Shown: positions 52,369 to 61,957, counted from the first letter of the stretch. The stretch: DNA of 64,000 nucleotides from Acidobacteriota bacterium (GCA_016191015.1 JACPPM010000301.1:5472-69471); one strand, 5' to 3'. Translations and numbers: made by a program. The notes: generated by a model from the letters alone, not told the origin.

Positions 52369-54333
52369 CTAGAAATCGTCCAGCCCGTTACAGTTCGAGT
52401 CCTTGTTGTCTCCCGGCGACTCGAACGCCCCGGGGTGGACCGTGGCGTCGGCGTCATTGCAGTCGCTACCGCGCACGTCCCCCTGGTACCGGTTTGCATA
52501 TTGGTCTCCATCGACGTCGTAGAGCTTGAGTGTGTTGCTGGTGCTGGTCGCGCCGCTATTGTCAGTGGCTGTTCCAACGATCGAGAAGATGCCCGACCCG
52601 GCGTAGATGTGGTAGTAGGAGAGGCCCGGGGTGATTGTCACCACACCGCCCTCACCGAAGTCGATCGTCGCGGACGTCACAGTTCCGTCGCTGTCTGACG
52701 CCGTGAGCATGACCACCACCTTCAGCGGGTTCTCAGTCCCGCCCTGCTGTGCCGTCAGTATGGCCGAAGGCGGCTGGTTGGGCGCGCTGACCCTCACCTG
52801 AGCCGTCTCGGTGTCGCTGGATCCCTTGTTGTCCTTGACCGTGAGGATCACGCTATACGTCCCGTTGGTCGCGTATTTGTGTGTCGTCGTCGCCCCCGAG
52901 CCCTTGGTCGAATTGTCCCCGTAATCCCAGGAATAGCTGGCGATCTGTCCATCAGGATCAGACGAGGACGTCCCGTTGAATGCGAAGGTCGTGTTCGTGT
53001 CTCCCTGGGTCGGTGAAACCGTGAAGCCGGCAACCGGCGGCTTGTTGGGACCCGTGACGTTGATGGTGGCCGCATCGGTCCCTGTGAGGTCGTCGTCGTC
53101 GGTCACGGTGAGAGTGGTGGTGTAGATGCCCTCCGCGACGTATGTGTGCTGGACGTTCGAGCCGCTGCCCTGTGTATTGTCCCCGAAGGTCCAGCTCCAT
53201 TCAGTGACATCGCCATCATCGTCGTGACTGCTCGTGCCGTCGAACGACACCGCCAGGGGCACAGGTCCGGAGGACGGTGTCGATCGGATGATGGCCGTGG
53301 GCGGCTGCATTCCGGGGAGCGGCGCCTGCGTCTCGATGAGCTGGGCCGGCCCCACTGCGATCTCGCCACCATCCTTGTCGTCGACAAAAATATGGTAGCG
53401 GCTCGGCTCGAGCCCCTCGACATAGCAACGCTTGGTCGTCTCGTTCTTCTTCAGCTCGACAAGTTGGGTCTTCCCGTTTTGCTTCAGGTAGGCTTCCGTG
53501 CCCTTCAGCTCCACCACGACTTCCCCACGATCCTTCCCATTGACGTTGCGCCCAATCGTCTGCCACAGGGGGTTGTCCTCGAGAAAGAGGCGCGAGAGCT
53601 TGAAAACGGGGTCATCGGAGTTCTTGATATCGAGGATCGGCCGCTTGCCCGTCACGAATCTGCCGTGTCGCAATCCGAGCCGCACCTTGAAGCCGGAGAC
53701 GAACGGCAAAATCGTCGCGTTCGACGCGCTGACCGGAATCATCCCGTCGTCCTTGGATGTGATGATGAGCAGCTTCGGGTATTTGGTCAGCAGATCAGGA
53801 TCGTTCGCGATCTTTGTCGCCGTGTTCCTGATCTGCGTGTAATAACTGTCGAAATAGTTCGATCCCTTCGAAACGGCCGGTGTCAGGTTCTTGGACATGC
53901 CGGTGAAGGTGAGAATCGCGTCGATATCCTGTGCCTGGGAATCGACACCGTCGATCAGAGGACTGATCAGCACAACCCGATCCACCATCTGTTCACGGAT
54001 CGCCTTGTCTTTGAGAACGGCTTCCAGGACAGACGTCGCGGCGATCGAGTGCGCCACGATTCCGATCTTCTCGCGTCCCGATTTCTGAAACGCCTCGCGA
54101 ATCTCCGCTTTCACCGAGCTGGAATAGGCGGCGATCGAGGCTGATTTCAGATTCGGCTTTCCAACCAGGGCCGACGATCCCATTGCGGCGACCCACTTCT
54201 CCCACGCCACATCCGGATCAGGCTCGCCCAGCCCGCTCAGCAACAGCACCTTCTTCTGCAACGCAGATTCAACGGCCGGCCCGCCGCTCAGGAAGACCAT
54301 CCCCAGCATCATCACAAACACCTTCTTCATCAC
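52369..54333 (-). CDS. Secreted alpha/beta-hydrolase (lipase/esterase-like) with three PKD domains
   Basis: Signal peptide; GIVAHSIAA nucleophile-elbow-like motif; three repeats of about 90 aa with the PKD pattern WxFGDxxxxxGxxxxHxY; lower GC than the flanks. Confidence 0.75.
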   Translation of the reverse strand: MMKKVFVMMLGMVFLSGGPAVESALQKKVLLLSGLGEPDPDVAWEKWVAAMGSSALVGKPNLKSASIAAYSSSVKAEIREAFQKSGREKIGIVAHSIAATSVLEAVLKDKAIREQMVDRVVLISPLIDGVDSQAQDIDAILTFTGMSKNLTPAVSKGSNYFDSYYTQIRNTATKIANDPDLLTKYPKLLIITSKDDGMIPVSASNATILPFVSGFKVRLGLRHGRFVTGKRPILDIKNSDDPVFKLSRLFLEDNPLWQTIGRNVNGKDRGEVVVELKGTEAYLKQNGKTQLVELKKNETTKRCYVEGLEPSRYHIFVDDKDGGEIAVGPAQLIETQAPLPGMQPPTAIIRSTPSSGPVPLAVSFDGTSSHDDDGDVTEWSWTFGDNTQGSGSNVQHTYVAEGIYTTTLTVTDDDDLTGTDAATINVTGPNKPPVAGFTVSPTQGDTNTTFAFNGTSSSDPDGQIASYSWDYGDNSTKGSGATTTHKYATNGTYSVILTVKDNKGSSDTETAQVRVSAPNQPPSAILTAQQGGTENPLKVVVMLTASDSDGTVTSATIDFGEGGVVTITPGLSYYHIYAGSGIFSIVGTATDNSGATSTSNTLKLYDVDGDQYANRYQGDVRGSDCNDADATVHPGAFESPGDNKDSNCNGLDDF

Positions 54334-54408: not shown

Positions 54409-54575
54409 GTGGAGCGTAGAGCGTGGAGCGTGGAGCGTGGAGCATGCAGGTAGTGGCGAAGCAGGGTCGTGCACGATGACGGATGCCTACAGGGATCAGG
54501 AACCCGAATCGTCTGGTCCGGCCTAGCCCCTAGCCCCTAGTCCCTGGTCCCTAGTCCCAAGTCCCTAGCCCCTGG
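54409..54575. repeat. Composite array: (GGAGCGT)x5 at 54409-54448, then (CTAGYCC)x7 at 54522-54575 abutting the stop of the upstream minus-strand gene (copy H)
   Basis: ggtggagcgtagagcgtggagcgtggagcgtggagc ... tccggcctagcccctagcccctagtccctggtccctagtcccaagtccctagcccctgg. Confidence 0.8.
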
Positions 54576-54579
54576 ATCG

Positions 54580-56190
54580 TCACGCGAATCGTTTGTTCGT
54601 CACGAAATCGGACATCAACGATGCGAGCTGGACGGGTCTGTCGGTCTTGACGGGAAACCCGATCTTGACCTCCTCCGCCTCCAAAACCACACTCATACGT
54701 GGCCTCGCCATCTCCCCCTGTTTCTCGCCGATCGTGATCGACAGATTTCGGATCTGGGGGTAGGTCATCTTCCGGTTCACCGAACCATTCGAGAAGACGA
54801 GGGATTTCTCGGTGACAAAGAAGGACCCGGCGACCTTGCTGTCCCGCAGTTCGAGCTCGGCCCGTTCCCCCCACCACAGCCGGGGCGCAACAGATCCCAT
54901 GTAGACCGTGCCTTCCCCTCGCAGCAACGGGAAGCGGCGGGTGACCTTCTCCGGCACGCGGGTGATTCCCAGCTTGCGCAACCCCTCCTCGAACTCGCGA
55001 TCCACGATCACCTGCCTGCCAGGCAGGGGATATCCACAGTGGAAGCACCCCGAGCTTTCGGCGGGATTGCGGCGCTGACATCGAGGGCATGATTGGAAGA
55101 CGAGGAATCCGCAGAAGGCGCATCGCGCGCTGGGGCTGCCGACATGCTGGCAGGAGGGGCACTGAACCTGTTCCTGCTCGATCTGCTTCTCGGTCTTGTT
55201 GCCGAGCGATTGTCCGCACTGGGGGCAGCTCTCATCGGTCGCCTTCACCCGCTTGCCGCAGCCGGAGCACTGATACGTTCGGCGCTTGTGGCCCTTCGAT
55301 TCCATGAAATTGAAATAGTGAAAAAGCTCGCCGCTCCTCGTCATGTCGTTCGTCGCTTGCGACACCTCACCGAAATCGATCTTCTGACTCCGCAAGCTAT
55401 GACCGACAAGCAGTGAGAGGTCGGCGATCGAGCAGATCACGCGCGGGACCCCCTGGCTGAACCGGTGAATGCCTTCGATCGCCGTGGCTGTGAAGACCTC
55501 CCGATCGAGCTGCCCTGCTGCACGGACGCGGTACTTGATGAGGTCGCCGGTGTCACGCAGATCGAGGTTCTTGAGGAAGAACCGGACGGGTAGCCGCTGC
55601 CAGAATTCAGGCATCTTCTTGACCGCGCCTTCCAGCGGCTTCTGTCCAGAAAAGACGAAGGAGAGCAGGAAGGTATCGGAGACACAGAAGTTGAGGAGGA
55701 TCCGGAGCTCCTGCAGGATGTCGGGTTTGTGGACCAGCATCTGGCCTTCATCGACGATGACCAGCGCTTTCGTGCCGGCGTGATGCAGCTCTTCGAGCTT
55801 CACCCTGAGAGCATTCAGGTTGTCGATCTTCTCTTTGCGGACGCGAGCGACCCCGAGCTGTCTGGCGATCTCCGCGATCATCTGATTGACGGTGAGGGTC
55901 GGGTGATCGATGAAGGCGATCTTGATGTTCCCTTCGTACTCCTCGGTCAACTCCTCTACAAGTCTGCGCAGGATCGATGTCTTCCCATCCCCGGCGTTTT
56001 CCGAGATCAGAAGTACTCCACCCTTGTTCGACACCACGCCATACTTGAGGCGCATCAGCGCCTCCTGGTGCTGAGCGCTGAGGAACAGCATGTCCGGGTC
56101 CGGGGAGAGCGAAAAGGGGTGCCGGGCAAACCCCCAGTAAGAGAGGTACTCTGGGACCATTATCCGTTCCAAAAAAGCAAGCCACGGCAT
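54580..56190 (-). CDS. ExeA/GspA-like AAA ATPase fused to three zinc-ribbon modules and a C-terminal PH-like domain
   Basis: YWGFARHPFSLSPDPDMLFLSAQHQEALMRL plus the Walker A GDGKTS is the ExeA signature. Three CxxC...CxxC ribbons. The C-terminal domain of about 150 aa is unassigned. Confidence 0.7.
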   Translation of the reverse strand: MPWLAFLERIMVPEYLSYWGFARHPFSLSPDPDMLFLSAQHQEALMRLKYGVVSNKGGVLLISENAGDGKTSILRRLVEELTEEYEGNIKIAFIDHPTLTVNQMIAEIARQLGVARVRKEKIDNLNALRVKLEELHHAGTKALVIVDEGQMLVHKPDILQELRILLNFCVSDTFLLSFVFSGQKPLEGAVKKMPEFWQRLPVRFFLKNLDLRDTGDLIKYRVRAAGQLDREVFTATAIEGIHRFSQGVPRVICSIADLSLLVGHSLRSQKIDFGEVSQATNDMTRSGELFHYFNFMESKGHKRRTYQCSGCGKRVKATDESCPQCGQSLGNKTEKQIEQEQVQCPSCQHVGSPSARCAFCGFLVFQSCPRCQRRNPAESSGCFHCGYPLPGRQVIVDREFEEGLRKLGITRVPEKVTRRFPLLRGEGTVYMGSVAPRLWWGERAELELRDSKVAGSFFVTEKSLVFSNGSVNRKMTYPQIRNLSITIGEKQGEMARPRMSVVLEAEEVKIGFPVKTDRPVQLASLMSDFVTNKRFA

Positions 56191-56245
56191 ACTACCACAA
56201 AACCTCCCCGCCGGGGCGAATCAGATTTGCCGACTCGCGTCGGCG

Positions 56246-57448
56246 CTATTTCTGCGCGGGCTGGCTTTGGGCCGCGGGCTGCGACTGCGCGGCGGGTTGC
56301 GATTGTGCCGCCGCCGGTTGGCTCTGCGGAGCCGGGGGCGGCGGCGGAGGTTGCATCACGTACGCCGTCAGAATTCCCTCGCCGCTCTCCGCATCGTACG
56401 TGGCGGCGTAGAGCACACGGTTGGCCAGCAGTGGAGTCGTCCGAGACTCGGCCCCCAAGTCAACGACCCCGCTCGGGATTGCGGCCCCCGTGATCGGGTC
56501 GACGGCGGTAAGCCGGTTGGAAAATGAAGCGACGACAATCATGTGATCGAAGACGAGCAGCTGGTCGTACATCCGGGCCGGGATGGGTGTCCGGAATACC
56601 CAGGCTCCGTTGTCCTTCAAGCAGTAGAGAAAATTATCGTACCCGGCGACAAAGACCCGCTCCCTGCCATCGATCATAGCTACCACGGGAGGTGCGACAA
56701 CGTCCGCCTCGGTCCTGACTCGCCACTTCACCGTGCCCTTCTCCTTGTCCACTCCGTAGATGAAATTGTCGGTCGAGCCTGCGACGATGACCTCTCGGAG
56801 AACCGCAGGCCGGCTCCGCATCTCTCCTCCTCCCGCGCATGTCCAGACGGTGGTGCCGTCACCCGCGCGGAGGCAATGGATCTCGCCGGCGAGCGTCGCG
56901 ACGTAGAGCCGGTCTCCCTCGATCGCCGGTGGGCTCACGATCTTGCCGCCCGGTGAGGCCTTCCAAACAAACCGATGCTCCTTGATCGAGTAACAGCGGA
57001 GCTGTGACTCGCCGGCTATGAAGTAGAGCGATTCACCGGCAAGCACTCCGGGCGTCGAGGGGGCACCGAACTTGAGCTGCTTGTAGACCACCTCACCGGT
57101 CGAGGCGCTCAGCTCAAAGTACTCGTCATCCCGGCTGAACAGGAGGATGCGATCCCCCGACAGGACGGGCTGAGTCGGGATCTCATGCATCGCCTTGAAC
57201 ATCCACCGCGCTTGGCCGGTCGATGGGTCAAGCGCGTAACCGTACCCCTTGGACGTCGTCACGTAGACGCGATCCGCGTCGGCCACAGGTGGACCGACGA
57301 TCAGCCCGGGCCCGCGCCATTGCCACTTGAGGATCAGGGGAAAATCGATCGGGTAGGGGGACGGAAGCGGGGTCGAAGGCTGCTCGGGTTTGCTGAGAAT
57401 CCCGCATCCGGCGAGCAGGACCAGTGGGAGTATGACGGCGTAGCGCAT
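56246..57448 (-). CDS. BamB-like PQQ beta-propeller lipoprotein with a C-terminal Pro/Gln-rich repeat tail
   Basis: Lipobox LLAGCG; repeated GxxVWxx...LY(V/A)(A/G) PQQ blades; tail PPPPPPAPQSQPAAAQSQPAAQSQPAAQSQPAQK. Confidence 0.7.
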   Translation of the reverse strand: MRYAVILPLVLLAGCGILSKPEQPSTPLPSPYPIDFPLILKWQWRGPGLIVGPPVADADRVYVTTSKGYGYALDPSTGQARWMFKAMHEIPTQPVLSGDRILLFSRDDEYFELSASTGEVVYKQLKFGAPSTPGVLAGESLYFIAGESQLRCYSIKEHRFVWKASPGGKIVSPPAIEGDRLYVATLAGEIHCLRAGDGTTVWTCAGGGEMRSRPAVLREVIVAGSTDNFIYGVDKEKGTVKWRVRTEADVVAPPVVAMIDGRERVFVAGYDNFLYCLKDNGAWVFRTPIPARMYDQLLVFDHMIVVASFSNRLTAVDPITGAAIPSGVVDLGAESRTTPLLANRVLYAATYDAESGEGILTAYVMQPPPPPPAPQSQPAAAQSQPAAQSQPAAQSQPAQK

Positions 57449-57517
57449 GCAAAAACCGGGACATACTATCCCCCGGCGCAGAGGGGAGTCAATCGCACTT
57501 GGAGCGGCTTCGACGCG

Positions 57518-57922
57518 CTAGGGCTCCGCGGGAGGAGCACTGTGGGGGCGCAGTGACTTGGCGATGAGCCCGAGTCCGGCTGCGAGGAGGCCGAGCATGA
57601 TGAGCGTATTGAACAAACTTGTCGGCTGGAAATAGATGTGCATGTTCATCATCACGCCGGCGATGATGATTCCGAAGCCCAGGAGGGTGAGGACCCAACC
57701 GGAGGCCGACCGGCCGTTGAAAAACAGAATGCCGATCCCGACAAGCATCGGCAGGAGGCTCAGCCCGAAGGCGTTCATCCCGTAAAACCGCCAGTATCCC
57801 GTCGTGACCTCTACCTGATTCATGAAAAGGTAGGCCCCGATACCGGACATCATCAACCCGGCAAAAAACTCCAACACGCCACCGGGCGTGCCCCCGGCCC
57901 CTCGTTGCTGGTCATTGCTCAT
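57518..57922 (-). CDS. Hypothetical 4-TM small membrane protein
   Basis: Hydrophobic segments; sits upstream of the BamB-like gene in the same orientation. Confidence 0.5.
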   Translation of the reverse strand: MSNDQQRGAGGTPGGVLEFFAGLMMSGIGAYLFMNQVEVTTGYWRFYGMNAFGLSLLPMLVGIGILFFNGRSASGWVLTLLGFGIIIAGVMMNMHIYFQPTSLFNTLIMLGLLAAGLGLIAKSLRPHSAPPAEP

Positions 57923-59867: not shown

Positions 59868-59920
59868 TGGAACTTTGAACTTTGAACTTTGAACTTTGAA
59901 CTTTGAACTTTGAACTCATC
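59868..59920. repeat. (TTTGAAC)x7 single-arm array between the TetR and ADH genes (copy I)
   Basis: ttggaactttgaac... x7, ending in aactcatcatgc; shares its tail with copy D. Confidence 0.85.
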
Positions 59921-59940: not shown

Positions 59941-60963
59941 ATGAAAGCCGCCGTCTACTATTCCGGCGAGAAGAACCTGAAAATCGAGGACTGGCCGCGC
60001 CCTGAGCCACGGGCCGGTGAGGTGCTCGTCAAGATCACCGCCTGCGGTGTCTGCCACACCGATCTCCATTACCTGGAGCACGGGGTGCCGACGTTTAAGA
60101 AGCCCCCACTTGTCCTCGGTCACGAAGGAGCGGGTGTGGTGACCGAGGTCGGGCAGGGCGTCGAGGGGATCAAGGTCGGGCAGCGTGTGCTGATTCCAGC
60201 CGTGATTTCGTGCGGGCGGTGCGAATACTGCCGGCGCGGCCGGGAGAACATCTGCGTTTCGATGGAGATGTTCGGCAATAATCGAGACGGCTGCTATGCG
60301 GAATACGTGACCGCGCCGGCGAAGGACGTTTTTGCAATGCCGGACGGCATCCCGCTGGAAGAGGGCTGCGTCATCGCTGACGCGCTGTCGACGCCTTACC
60401 ATGCTGTGAGGAATCGCGGGCAGGTACAGGCCGGTGAAGTCGTGGTCGTGCTCGGGTGCGGCGGGGTCGGGATCAATGTGGTCCAGGTGGCCGCCGCCTC
60501 GGGCGCAATCGTCTTCGCCGTCGATGTGTCAGACCGAAAGCTCCAGTGGGCCAAGGATTTCGGCGCTGCCCATGTCTACAACACCTCGGGCCGCGAGGCG
60601 CTGAAGGAGCTCCGCAAGCTCACCGGCGGCGGCGGGCCCGACATCGTGTTCGAAGCGATCGGGAAGACTGCCACGATCCAGCTCGCCTACGATCTCGTCC
60701 GCCCCGGAGGACGTGTCTGCGTGATCGGCTATACGGCCGAGACGATGCCGTTCAGCCCAGCCAAGCTGATGTACCGCGAGGTCTCCATCTTCGGATCGCT
60801 CGGATGTCGTGGCGTCGATTACCCGCCGCTGATCCGGCTGGTGGAACGCGGGAAGCTGGACTGCAAGCGGCTCGTCACGCACCGGTTCCCGCTCGATCGG
60901 ATCGCCGAAGCGTTTGAGCTGATGAAGGCGGGAGAGTCTTTGAGGAGTGTCGTGCTTCCATGA
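59941..60963 (+). CDS. Zinc-dependent alcohol dehydrogenase (MDR family)
   Basis: CGVCHTDLH and GHEGAG motifs; GGAGG SD 5 nt upstream of ATG 59941. Confidence 0.85.
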   Translation: MKAAVYYSGEKNLKIEDWPRPEPRAGEVLVKITACGVCHTDLHYLEHGVPTFKKPPLVLGHEGAGVVTEVGQGVEGIKVGQRVLIPAVISCGRCEYCRRGRENICVSMEMFGNNRDGCYAEYVTAPAKDVFAMPDGIPLEEGCVIADALSTPYHAVRNRGQVQAGEVVVVLGCGGVGINVVQVAAASGAIVFAVDVSDRKLQWAKDFGAAHVYNTSGREALKELRKLTGGGGPDIVFEAIGKTATIQLAYDLVRPGGRVCVIGYTAETMPFSPAKLMYREVSIFGSLGCRGVDYPPLIRLVERGKLDCKRLVTHRFPLDRIAEAFELMKAGESLRSVVLP

Positions 60964-60994
60964 GAGAGGCAGCTGGCCCGAGAAGGAGGTTTTT

Positions 60995-61957
60995 ATGACA
61001 TATTTCGAACCCAAATCCCCCGGAGAATTCGGATTCAAGGACATCATCTATGAGAAGAAGGACGGTGTGGCGCGCGTCACGATCAACCGTCCCAAGTTTT
61101 ACAACGCCTATTCCTCGCTGGCGCTCGAGGAGATGACGAAGGCCTTCACGGACGCGTCATGGGACGACTCGATTGCGGTCGTTGTGTTGACGGGCGCAGG
61201 GGACAAGGCCTTCTGCACCGGTGGCGACGTGAAGGAGTACGCGACCAGCTACACGCGCCGGCCGCACGACTACTGGAAATGGATGGGACTGTTCAATGGG
61301 GCACACGATGTGCTGCGCAACATCGGCAAGCCGACGATTGCCCGGTTGAATGGAATGGTGGTTGGAGGCGGCAACGAATTCAACATGGCCTGCGATCTGG
61401 CAGTGGCGGCCGAGCACGTCGTGATTCGGCAGGTGGGTCCGCGGGTGGGCTCGGTCCCGGCCGGGGGTGCCACCCAGTGGCTCCCGATCATGGTCGGCGA
61501 TCGGCGCGCGCGTTGGATGCTCTACATGTGCGAAGAGCTCGATGCAACGACCGCGCTCGACTGGGGTCTCGTCAACTTCGTCGTTCCTCTGGACAAGCTG
61601 GATGAGAAGGTCAACGAGATCTGCGAAAAGCTGAAGGACAAGTTTCCCGAGTGCCTTCGCTATACCAAGCAGCAGACGAACTTCTGGAAGGATCTTTCCT
61701 GGCACACAACGATTGGTCACGCACGCGATTGGCTGTCGCTGCACTATCTCTCGGCCGAGGTGCACGAGGGGATGAACTCATTCGTCGAGAAGCGCCAACC
61801 GGACTATCGCGGGATGCGGCAGAAGGCCGCTGAAGGGAAGAGTAGCGAGTACGTCTGGGGGCCATACGCGAAGGTTTGCGGGAAATGCGGGGCGAAATAC
61901 ATTCCGGAGGACTTCAAGTTCTGCGGAGCGTGTGGGGAGGCGTTGGGGAGCAGTTAG
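60995..61957 (+). CDS. MenB/BadI-family crotonase (1,4-dihydroxy-2-naphthoyl-CoA-synthase-like) with a C-terminal CxxC...CxxC zinc ribbon
   Basis: DIIYEKKDGVARVTINRP, LTGAGDKAFCTGGD and EGMNSFVEKRQPDY track MenB closely. Extra tail CGKCGAKYIPEDFKFCGACG. Confidence 0.75.
   Translation: MTYFEPKSPGEFGFKDIIYEKKDGVARVTINRPKFYNAYSSLALEEMTKAFTDASWDDSIAVVVLTGAGDKAFCTGGDVKEYATSYTRRPHDYWKWMGLFNGAHDVLRNIGKPTIARLNGMVVGGGNEFNMACDLAVAAEHVVIRQVGPRVGSVPAGGATQWLPIMVGDRRARWMLYMCEELDATTALDWGLVNFVVPLDKLDEKVNEICEKLKDKFPECLRYTKQQTNFWKDLSWHTTIGHARDWLSLHYLSAEVHEGMNSFVEKRQPDYRGMRQKAAEGKSSEYVWGPYAKVCGKCGAKYIPEDFKFCGACGEALGSS

Follow-up and report, generated by a model that had tools for sequence, protein, structure and literature searches.

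Bacterial ATPases of the ExeA/GspA type are modular proteins of the cell envelope. GspA comprises a cytoplasmic AAA+ domain, a transmembrane segment, and a periplasmic part made of C39-like and peptidoglycan-binding domains, and acts together with GspB in secretin assembly (PMC9239104). The MSHA pilus operon contains a gene for an ExeA-like ATPase, MshM, flanked by those for the secretin and the TPR protein MshN; mutants in which it is deleted still form pili (PMC4624765). In Pseudomonas aeruginosa, the gene for the ExeA-like protein PA5037 (PA14_66580) lies upstream of pilMNOPQ, and the mutant bears fewer pili and shows reduced twitching (PMC6321873). Thus, ExeA-type ATPases also serve type IV pili. 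Even in model bacteria these proteins are poorly understood, and it is not clear what their ATPase domain contributes to the assembly of secretins or pili. Here we describe a variant of this type found in a stretch of 64,000 nucleotides from an Acidobacteriota bacterium (GCA_016191015.1 JACPPM010000301.1:5472-69471), referred to below as the window. The gene lies on the minus strand at 54580-56190, and its product joins an ExeA-type ATPase domain to three zinc ribbons and a predicted bacterial PH-like domain of distinct sequence. Since the family keeps the ATPase and exchanges the envelope-anchoring half, it would separate the ATPase function from peptidoglycan binding.

Domain Organization of the ATPase

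The gene and the parts of its product are as follows:

54580-56190, minus strand: ExeA-like ATPase, longest open reading frame, 536 aa (from the list of open reading frames)
55306-56160, minus strand: AAA+ domain of the ExeA/GspA/MshM type, residues 11-295 (AAA_22, TIGR03015, and the alignment with Aeromonas ExeA)
55216-55269, minus strand: zinc ribbon 1 (C308, C311, C322, C325), variable or absent in more distant homologues
55111-55161, minus strand: zinc ribbon 2 (C344, C347, C357, C360), kept in at least 90% of aligned homologues
55036-55089, minus strand: zinc ribbon 3 (C368, C371, C382, C385), kept in at least 90% of aligned homologues
54583-55026, minus strand: basic domain of predicted PH-like fold, residues 389-536, about 150 aa, isoelectric point (pI) of about 10 (AlphaFold2 model and Foldseek)

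The true start of the protein is probably the ATG at 56160, which gives 526 aa, since the identical deposited protein (P0001) has this length and all 27 aligned homologues start with M(L/V)PEYL.

A first-pass annotation of the window had proposed an ExeA-like ATPase followed by three CxxC...CxxC ribbons, and this description holds. In Pfam, the ATPase domain is matched by AAA_22 (8.8e-15), while the AAA_16 match that had been expected is sub-threshold. The best-scoring curated family is TIGR03015, the XrtA/PEP-CTERM system-associated ATPase, which aligns along its whole 269-position profile (positions 2-267, E value 7e-48); the score of 163.4 bits is about half of the curated cutoff of 324.5 bits and thus misses it. 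TIGR03015 proteins resemble the ATPase domain in being short cytoplasmic ExeA-like proteins devoid of a periplasmic part, but they carry neither zinc ribbons nor a PH-like tail. The starts of the open reading frames in the window contain nothing suggestive of an exopolysaccharide locus, PEP-CTERM and exosortase genes not having been specifically searched for.

Pairwise alignment of the window ATPase with Aeromonas ExeA gives 32% identity over 273 residues (E value 6e-41). Starting with the Y..(F/W)G....PF motif at the very N-terminus, the alignment spans the AAA+ domain to its end and breaks off at the onset of the linker and the transmembrane segment of ExeA. The reference is an open reading frame of an Aeromonas caviae replicon obtained by tblastn of plasmid records; it is a genuine ExeA, because AAA_22, GspA_C39-like, and PG_binding_1 domains are combined in it and a T2SSB (ExeB) gene comes next. 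GspA of E. coli K-12 gave no match to the window ATPase in a pairwise comparison because that protein is divergent and shorter at the N-terminus, so that the Aeromonas protein was used instead. The homology to ExeA/GspA includes the N-terminal motif, here YLxYWGxxxxPFSLxPDP, Walker A (GDGKTS), Walker B (VDEGQ), and GxPR, and the residues of the last three are invariant in 28 homologues. When the PDB was searched by sequence with the family profile, only a zinc-ribbon match to DZANK1 and weak matches to Cdc6 were obtained, and neither this search nor Foldseek recovered a structure of an ExeA-type ATPase domain.

Beyond the AAA+ domain, the likeness to ExeA/GspA ends. Instead of a transmembrane segment, C39-like and PG_binding_1 domains, and a gspB partner, the window protein has the ribbons and the PH-like domain. 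No 19-residue segment of the ATPase reaches a mean Kyte-Doolittle value above 1.8, and the chain past residue 295 is polar and rich in cysteine. Neither PF21327 (C39-like) nor PF01471 (peptidoglycan-binding) matches the protein at E values up to 0.1, whereas the same tool detects both in E. coli GspA and Aeromonas ExeA; the reported loss of the usual peptidoglycan-binding part is thereby borne out. The same is true of the absence of gsp genes nearby: T2SSB is missing among the neighbours of the ATPase gene and T2SSE and PilC from the 64-kb window, secretin genes not having been specifically searched for. (The immediate neighbours were searched against Pfam, and the rest of the window was read from the starts of its open reading frames.) Lacking a transmembrane segment, C39-like and peptidoglycan-binding domains, and an adjacent ExeB gene, the window protein is not a GspA/ExeA orthologue. 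With no signal peptide or transmembrane segment and with twelve zinc-ribbon cysteines, it is predicted to be soluble and cytoplasmic.

C-terminal to the ATPase domain there are exactly six CxxC pairs, which form the three ribbons. They are matched by DZR (2e-6), and DZR and Zn_Ribbon_1 together cover residues 308-361; zinc_ribbon_2, which had been expected, does not match. In the model of the full-length protein (predicted local distance difference test, pLDDT, 87; predicted TM-score, pTM, 0.52), confidently modelled domains are connected through the disordered linkers 287-303 and 333-338 like beads on a string. A zinc-ribbon motif of the CxxC...CxxC type (VCGKCGAKYIPEDFKFCGACGEAL), seen in translation only, also occurs at the C-terminus of an enoyl-CoA hydratase-like open reading frame elsewhere in the window (336 aa, 60947-61957, plus strand); it recalls the ribbons of the ATPase, and such a fusion is unusual for that enzyme family.

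A Sequence-Distinct PH-Like Domain

The C-terminal domain of about 150 aa, left unassigned at first with a PH-like fold as a suggestion, was modelled with AlphaFold2 from residues 388-536 and 24 homologues, and the model reached a pLDDT of 92.7 and a pTM of 0.88. In it, a beta-sandwich is preceded by a helix and followed by a second, long helix at the C-terminus. The leading Foldseek matches in the PDB are all PH-like folds (best E value 8e-5), with a target-normalised TM-score of up to 0.66 for single-domain targets; they include 4tyz, the PH domain of GRK2, the FERM domain of FAK, Spt16 and SSRP1 of FACT, the PH domain of Sin1, the GRAM-PH domain of MTMR2, and the bacterial PH protein 3hsa from Shewanella. 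Judged by its model, then, the domain has a PH-like fold, which is a seven-stranded beta-sandwich with a capping helix at the C-terminus. A PilZ-like domain, suspected by eye, was rejected: the RxxxR and D/NxSxxG motifs are absent, and the structures matched by the fold are PH-like and have a helix at the C-terminus.

By sequence, the domain stands apart. Among 24 members of the family searched, no Pfam model exceeds its threshold, and the window member has no match at all, the anticipated bPH_2 included. The sub-threshold matches of single members, among them bPH_6, bPH_4, and DUF956, have best E values of about 0.0075-0.25, the best bPH scores being 0.0075 for bPH_6 (one member) and 0.097 for bPH_4 (two members). 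With bPH domains such as 3hsa and with GRAM/PH domains the window domain shares the beta-sandwich closed by a C-terminal helix, but it reaches no bPH threshold and carries an additional helical segment at the N-terminus. When 1.84 billion representative proteins were searched with a profile of the domain, 36 matches were obtained; the ten inspected, together with those already known, all belong to this ATPase family or are fragments of its members. One match, P0126, has a coiled-coil N-terminus, the status of which is unclear. These searches point to a bacterial PH-like domain that is specific to this family of ATPases. It is strongly basic, with a pI of 9.3-11.5 in 22 of the 24 members.

Distribution of the Family

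The combination of the ATPase with the PH-like tail, usually with ribbons between them, defines a family of at least 24 lineages, obtained by clustering the ATPases at 70% identity. Homologues are found in Acidobacteriota, Nitrospirota/Leptospirillia, Gemmatimonadota, Planctomycetota, Latescibacterota, Nitrospinota, Tectomicrobia, and "Glassbacteria", and across these phyla the ATPase domain retains about 60% identity. The carriers belong mostly to uncultured phyla of soil and sediment, in which accessory factors of pili and secretion are essentially unexplored. Databases annotate the homologues only as "AAA family ATPase" or "ExeA/GspA", and no paper describing a zinc-ribbon/PH architecture with an ExeA-like ATPase was found, in agreement with the initial view of the protein as uncharacterised. 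The family is thus both widespread and unstudied.

Across the loci of the family, some proteins have no ribbon and others three or more. Both the ATPase and the PH-like tail are present in each of the ten longer forms that were sampled (515-859 aa), with acidic or proline-rich linkers and one to several ribbons between them, and P0090 (464 aa) has the tail and no ribbon. The ribbonless protein and the variation among the longer forms indicate that the ATPase and the PH-like domain make up the constant pairing, with the ribbons as a variable linker element.

The canonical ExeA topology is seen in a sister clade of 45% identity, Syntrophorhabdus and relatives, where the ATPase is followed by a transmembrane segment near residue 330 and then by an SH3_3 domain in the periplasm. 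Therefore, the window protein can be viewed as one in which the envelope-anchoring half of an ExeA-type protein has been replaced by a soluble module. At the Syntrophorhabdus-type loci (L055-L085, e.g., L061 9387-11629), a secreted SNase-Ada_Zn_binding fusion protein precedes the ATPase in 31 cases.

The Adjacent Membrane Protein and Propeller Lipoprotein Genes

In the window, three minus-strand open reading frames follow one another head to tail in the order membrane protein, lipoprotein, ATPase, and this arrangement had been taken for an operon encoding an envelope-associated module. The features around the ATPase gene are:

57518-57922, minus strand: small membrane protein with about four transmembrane segments, 134 aa (hydropathy; no Pfam family)
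56246-57448, minus strand: PQQ-like beta-propeller lipoprotein, 400 aa (PQQ_2 at 1.6e-31, lipobox)
56161-56245, minus strand: spacer between the propeller and ATPase genes, with two short hairpins, one of them followed by TTTTGT
52369-54333, minus strand: 654-aa PKD protein, the downstream neighbour of the ATPase (Pfam; context, separate from the ATPase)

The membrane protein shows three hydrophobic segments above the threshold and a weaker fourth, in line with the four segments reported for it. The second protein starts with a lipoprotein signal (MRYAVILPLVLLAGC) containing the lipobox LLAGC and ends in a Pro/Gln-repeat tail. Its description as a BamB-like propeller lipoprotein is right with respect to the lipobox, the PQQ_2 propeller, and the tail, but it is not BamB: it scores 103.7 bits against TIGR03300, whose cutoff is 285.2, and 71 against NF008351, whose cutoff is 423. 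It is a generic PQQ_2 propeller lipoprotein and a lineage-specific neighbour of the ATPase.

Could the three proteins form one envelope-spanning module, in which the membrane protein couples the cytoplasmic ATPase to the periplasmic propeller? The shared strand and order and the short spacers in the window would fit (69 nt between the first two genes, and 55 nt between the propeller and ATPase genes, the latter becoming 85 nt if the ATPase starts at 56160, as is likely), and canonical ExeA too works with a small membrane partner (PMC9239104). The module was examined by tblastn of the membrane and propeller proteins against 85 loci and by inspection of the contexts of seven close homologues of the ATPase and three of the membrane protein. 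The only loci with both genes beside the ATPase gene are L001/L007 (the ATPase being 68% identical) and L006 (70%), where the order is kept and the propeller and the membrane protein retain 53% and 71% identity, respectively. Overall, the trio occurs in 2 of the 24 lineages. It is absent from the closest homologue, P0002 (72%, L086), which has a peptidase M1 gene upstream, as well as from the homologues at 65, 63, 61, 58, and 56% identity. The membrane protein, likewise a lineage-specific neighbour of the ATPase, comes from a family that numbers more than 7,000 (7,226 homologues detected at 60-72% identity), and in L091-L093, three long contigs, it is encoded by a stand-alone gene in unrelated contexts. 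JGI labels of this family at times read "YqfA/hemolysin III family", and in Acidobacteriota the gene stands alone.

Co-conservation of the three genes, proposed in advance as the test of the module, is therefore not observed. The operon was not confirmed either: in L001 and L006, the gap between the propeller and ATPase genes is about 190-205 nt, and spacers from 85 to about 205 nt leave room for separate promoters. With the ATPase in the cytoplasm and the propeller lipoprotein in the periplasm, a direct complex of the two is topologically excluded, and a single module comprising all three proteins appears quite improbable. At the level of conservation, the three-gene unit is not real. The ATPase gene is inherited independently of the other two, which are its neighbours by local synteny; an obligate partnership is not supported.

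On the other side of the ATPase, the 654-aa secreted protein combines an alpha/beta-hydrolase-like N-terminus with three PKD domains and a MopE-like putative metal-binding motif. Its gene lies directly downstream of the ATPase gene only in the three closest genomes (the window, L086 7728-9689, and L006 11914-13875, there as cluster c353), being kept even in L086, which has no membrane protein and propeller genes.

Neighbours Across the Family and the Link to Type IV Filaments

All-against-all clustering of the open reading frames around 86 loci revealed no universally conserved neighbour of the ATPase gene, only lineage-specific blocks, mostly of housekeeping genes (ppdK, tmk, anmK, rseP, coaB-like). 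One cluster that seemed to cross phyla, c18 (TPR/FGE-sulfatase), arose from single-linkage chaining: by tblastn it is confined to one lineage, with domain-only matches in two others.

The sole recurrent functional theme is the presence of PilB/GspE-type ATPases, found near the ATPase gene in three of the 24 lineages. In a Holophagae-like lineage, the gene order is pilB-pilT-pilC-histidine kinase-sigma54 regulator-ATPase. In the second lineage, a GAF-MshEN-T2SSE gene is adjacent to and divergent from the ATPase gene, which heads a tight operon with a TM/coiled-coil (transmembrane/coiled-coil) protein, an unassigned 263-aa protein of cluster c119, and a TPR/FGE-sulfatase protein. In the third, a T2SSE gene lies 5 kb away. 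Three lineages compare with about 0.5 expected by chance (Poisson P of about 0.014), the expectation being estimated roughly from how many such genes a genome contains. The association of the family with PilB/GspE is thus suggestive.

MshM and PA5037 offer a parallel as ExeA-like ATPases encoded near pilus genes, likened here by description, not by sequence. They differ in the architecture of the tail, and neither in the window nor in most lineages does a pilus gene lie near the ATPase gene. PilB, PilT, and PilC homologues were not found in the 64-kb window, and the MshM-type setting, a pilus operon with secretin and TPR neighbours, is absent from it. Relatives in two lineages adjoin pilB-type genes, and in one of these TPR proteins follow downstream.

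Several features of these loci may be recorded separately. The full arrangement at L028 (7412-17306) is a GAF-MshEN-T2SSE gene divergent from an operon for ATPase-PH, the TM/coiled-coil protein, c119 (263 aa), the TPR/FGE-sulfatase protein, and a TPR protein. Loci L021, L026-L028, L030, L031, L033, L038, and L042 form one lineage under labels that range from Glassbacteria and Gemmatimonadales even to "archaeon"; as their proteins are 80-85% identical, some of these labels are probably wrong. In Holophagae-like acidobacteria (L009, L010, L013-L019, L022, L025, L052), a PilS-like histidine kinase with multiple transmembrane segments and an NtrC-type regulator are followed by the ATPase gene, which precedes ppdK with apparently overlapping stop and start codons; pilB-pilT-pilC are found upstream in one sub-lineage and not in another.

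A Possible Mode of Action

Taken together, the data are best explained, in our tentative judgement and with somewhat less than even confidence, by an independent cytoplasmic switch or scaffold ATPase of the ExeA type, in which the transmembrane and cell-wall-binding part is replaced by the ribbons and the PH-like domain and which may aid a type IV filament or secretin machinery. ATP binding would cause the AAA+ core, which resembles ORC/Cdc6, MuB, and TnsC, to self-associate and build an oligomeric scaffold. Tied to this core by a flexible zinc-ribbon linker, the basic PH-like domain might then, with the aid of the ribbons, dock the scaffold on an anionic surface; the most likely target is the cytoplasmic membrane at its inner face, or a partner found there. 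From the cytoplasmic side, the ATPase could help to assemble or regulate a type IV filament or a machine of the secretin type, as would be expected by analogy with ExeA, MshM, and PA5037.

Several points weigh against this explanation. The family is known only from sequences and models. The best Foldseek matches of the AAA+ core are ORC1/Cdc6, MuB, TnsC, and domain III of DnaA, so that its nearest structural relatives are DNA-binding proteins. Both zinc ribbons and basic domains are as well suited to nucleic acids as to membranes, and PH-like folds are so versatile that the ligand is not predictable from the fold. In 21 of the 24 lineages, the window included, there is no pilus or secretion neighbour, and the PilB association amounts to three lineages set against a rough chance estimate. 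Finally, the trio with the membrane protein and the propeller is kept in two related lineages, where a lineage-specific functional link is possible.

The same evidence underlies the main rival explanation, which we consider rather unlikely: a nucleic-acid-associated AAA+ switch that polymerises on DNA as ORC/Cdc6, MuB, TnsC, and DnaA do, for instance, to organise or repair the chromosome, and that recruits DNA or protein through its ribbons and its basic PH-like domain. The structures matched best by the AAA+ core are DNA-bound ATPases of the initiator clade, the ribbons are combined with a domain of pI about 10, and chromatin or transcription factors (FACT, Rtt106, TFIIH p62) account for many of the leading PH-like matches; furthermore, an ATPase conserved at this level across phyla and encoded among housekeeping genes would fit a core cellular function. 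However, fold similarity inside the AAA+ initiator clade is generic, and by sequence the ATPase groups with the envelope-associated ExeA and the PEP-CTERM ATPase, not with DNA-binding members. Besides, the sister clade is anchored in the membrane and carries its SH3_3 domain in the periplasm, and the PH-type members show no association with a DNA-binding domain, winged-helix or other, nor with a nuclease or a transposase.

In its boldest form, the explanation by a cytoplasmic ExeA-type ATPase would make the ATPase-(zinc ribbon)n-PH family an unrecognised, deeply conserved accessory factor of type IV filament or secretin machines, recruited to the membrane by a new bacterial PH-like domain rather than by a transmembrane segment and a peptidoglycan anchor. 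We regard this general claim as doubtful.

Chromosomal Context

The window, which stems from a metagenome-assembled genome, is an ordinary part of the core chromosome, as it contains rpsI, rpsB, tsf, pyrH, frr, groEL, and the pyruvate kinase gene. Such a setting bears on the idea that the ATPase belongs to a mobile element or to anti-phage defence, as a TniB/TnsC-like transposition ATPase or a STAND/AAA_22 NTPase. Weak sub-threshold matches to nSTAND NTPase models and TniB-like relatives hint in this direction, and some plasmid-borne AAA_22 relatives adjoin IS481/DDE transposases; the plasmid matches, however, do not exceed 33% identity and cover the ATPase domain only. There is no PADLOC match below 0.002 and no phage match, and in none of the 24 lineages does a transposase, nuclease, or effector gene adjoin the ATPase gene. 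The core chromosomal location and the very high conservation across phyla, unlike that of defence genes, also argue against a role in defence or in a mobile element, which is essentially excluded.

The window also contains tandem arrays of heptanucleotides. Two of them, GTGGAGC x5 (54409-54443) and CCTAGTC x7.4 (54522-54573), are intergenic and lie just past the stop codon of the ATPase gene. A perfect array, GAACTTT x6.7 (59870-59916), is located in the intergenic region between a TetR-like and an alcohol-dehydrogenase-like gene.

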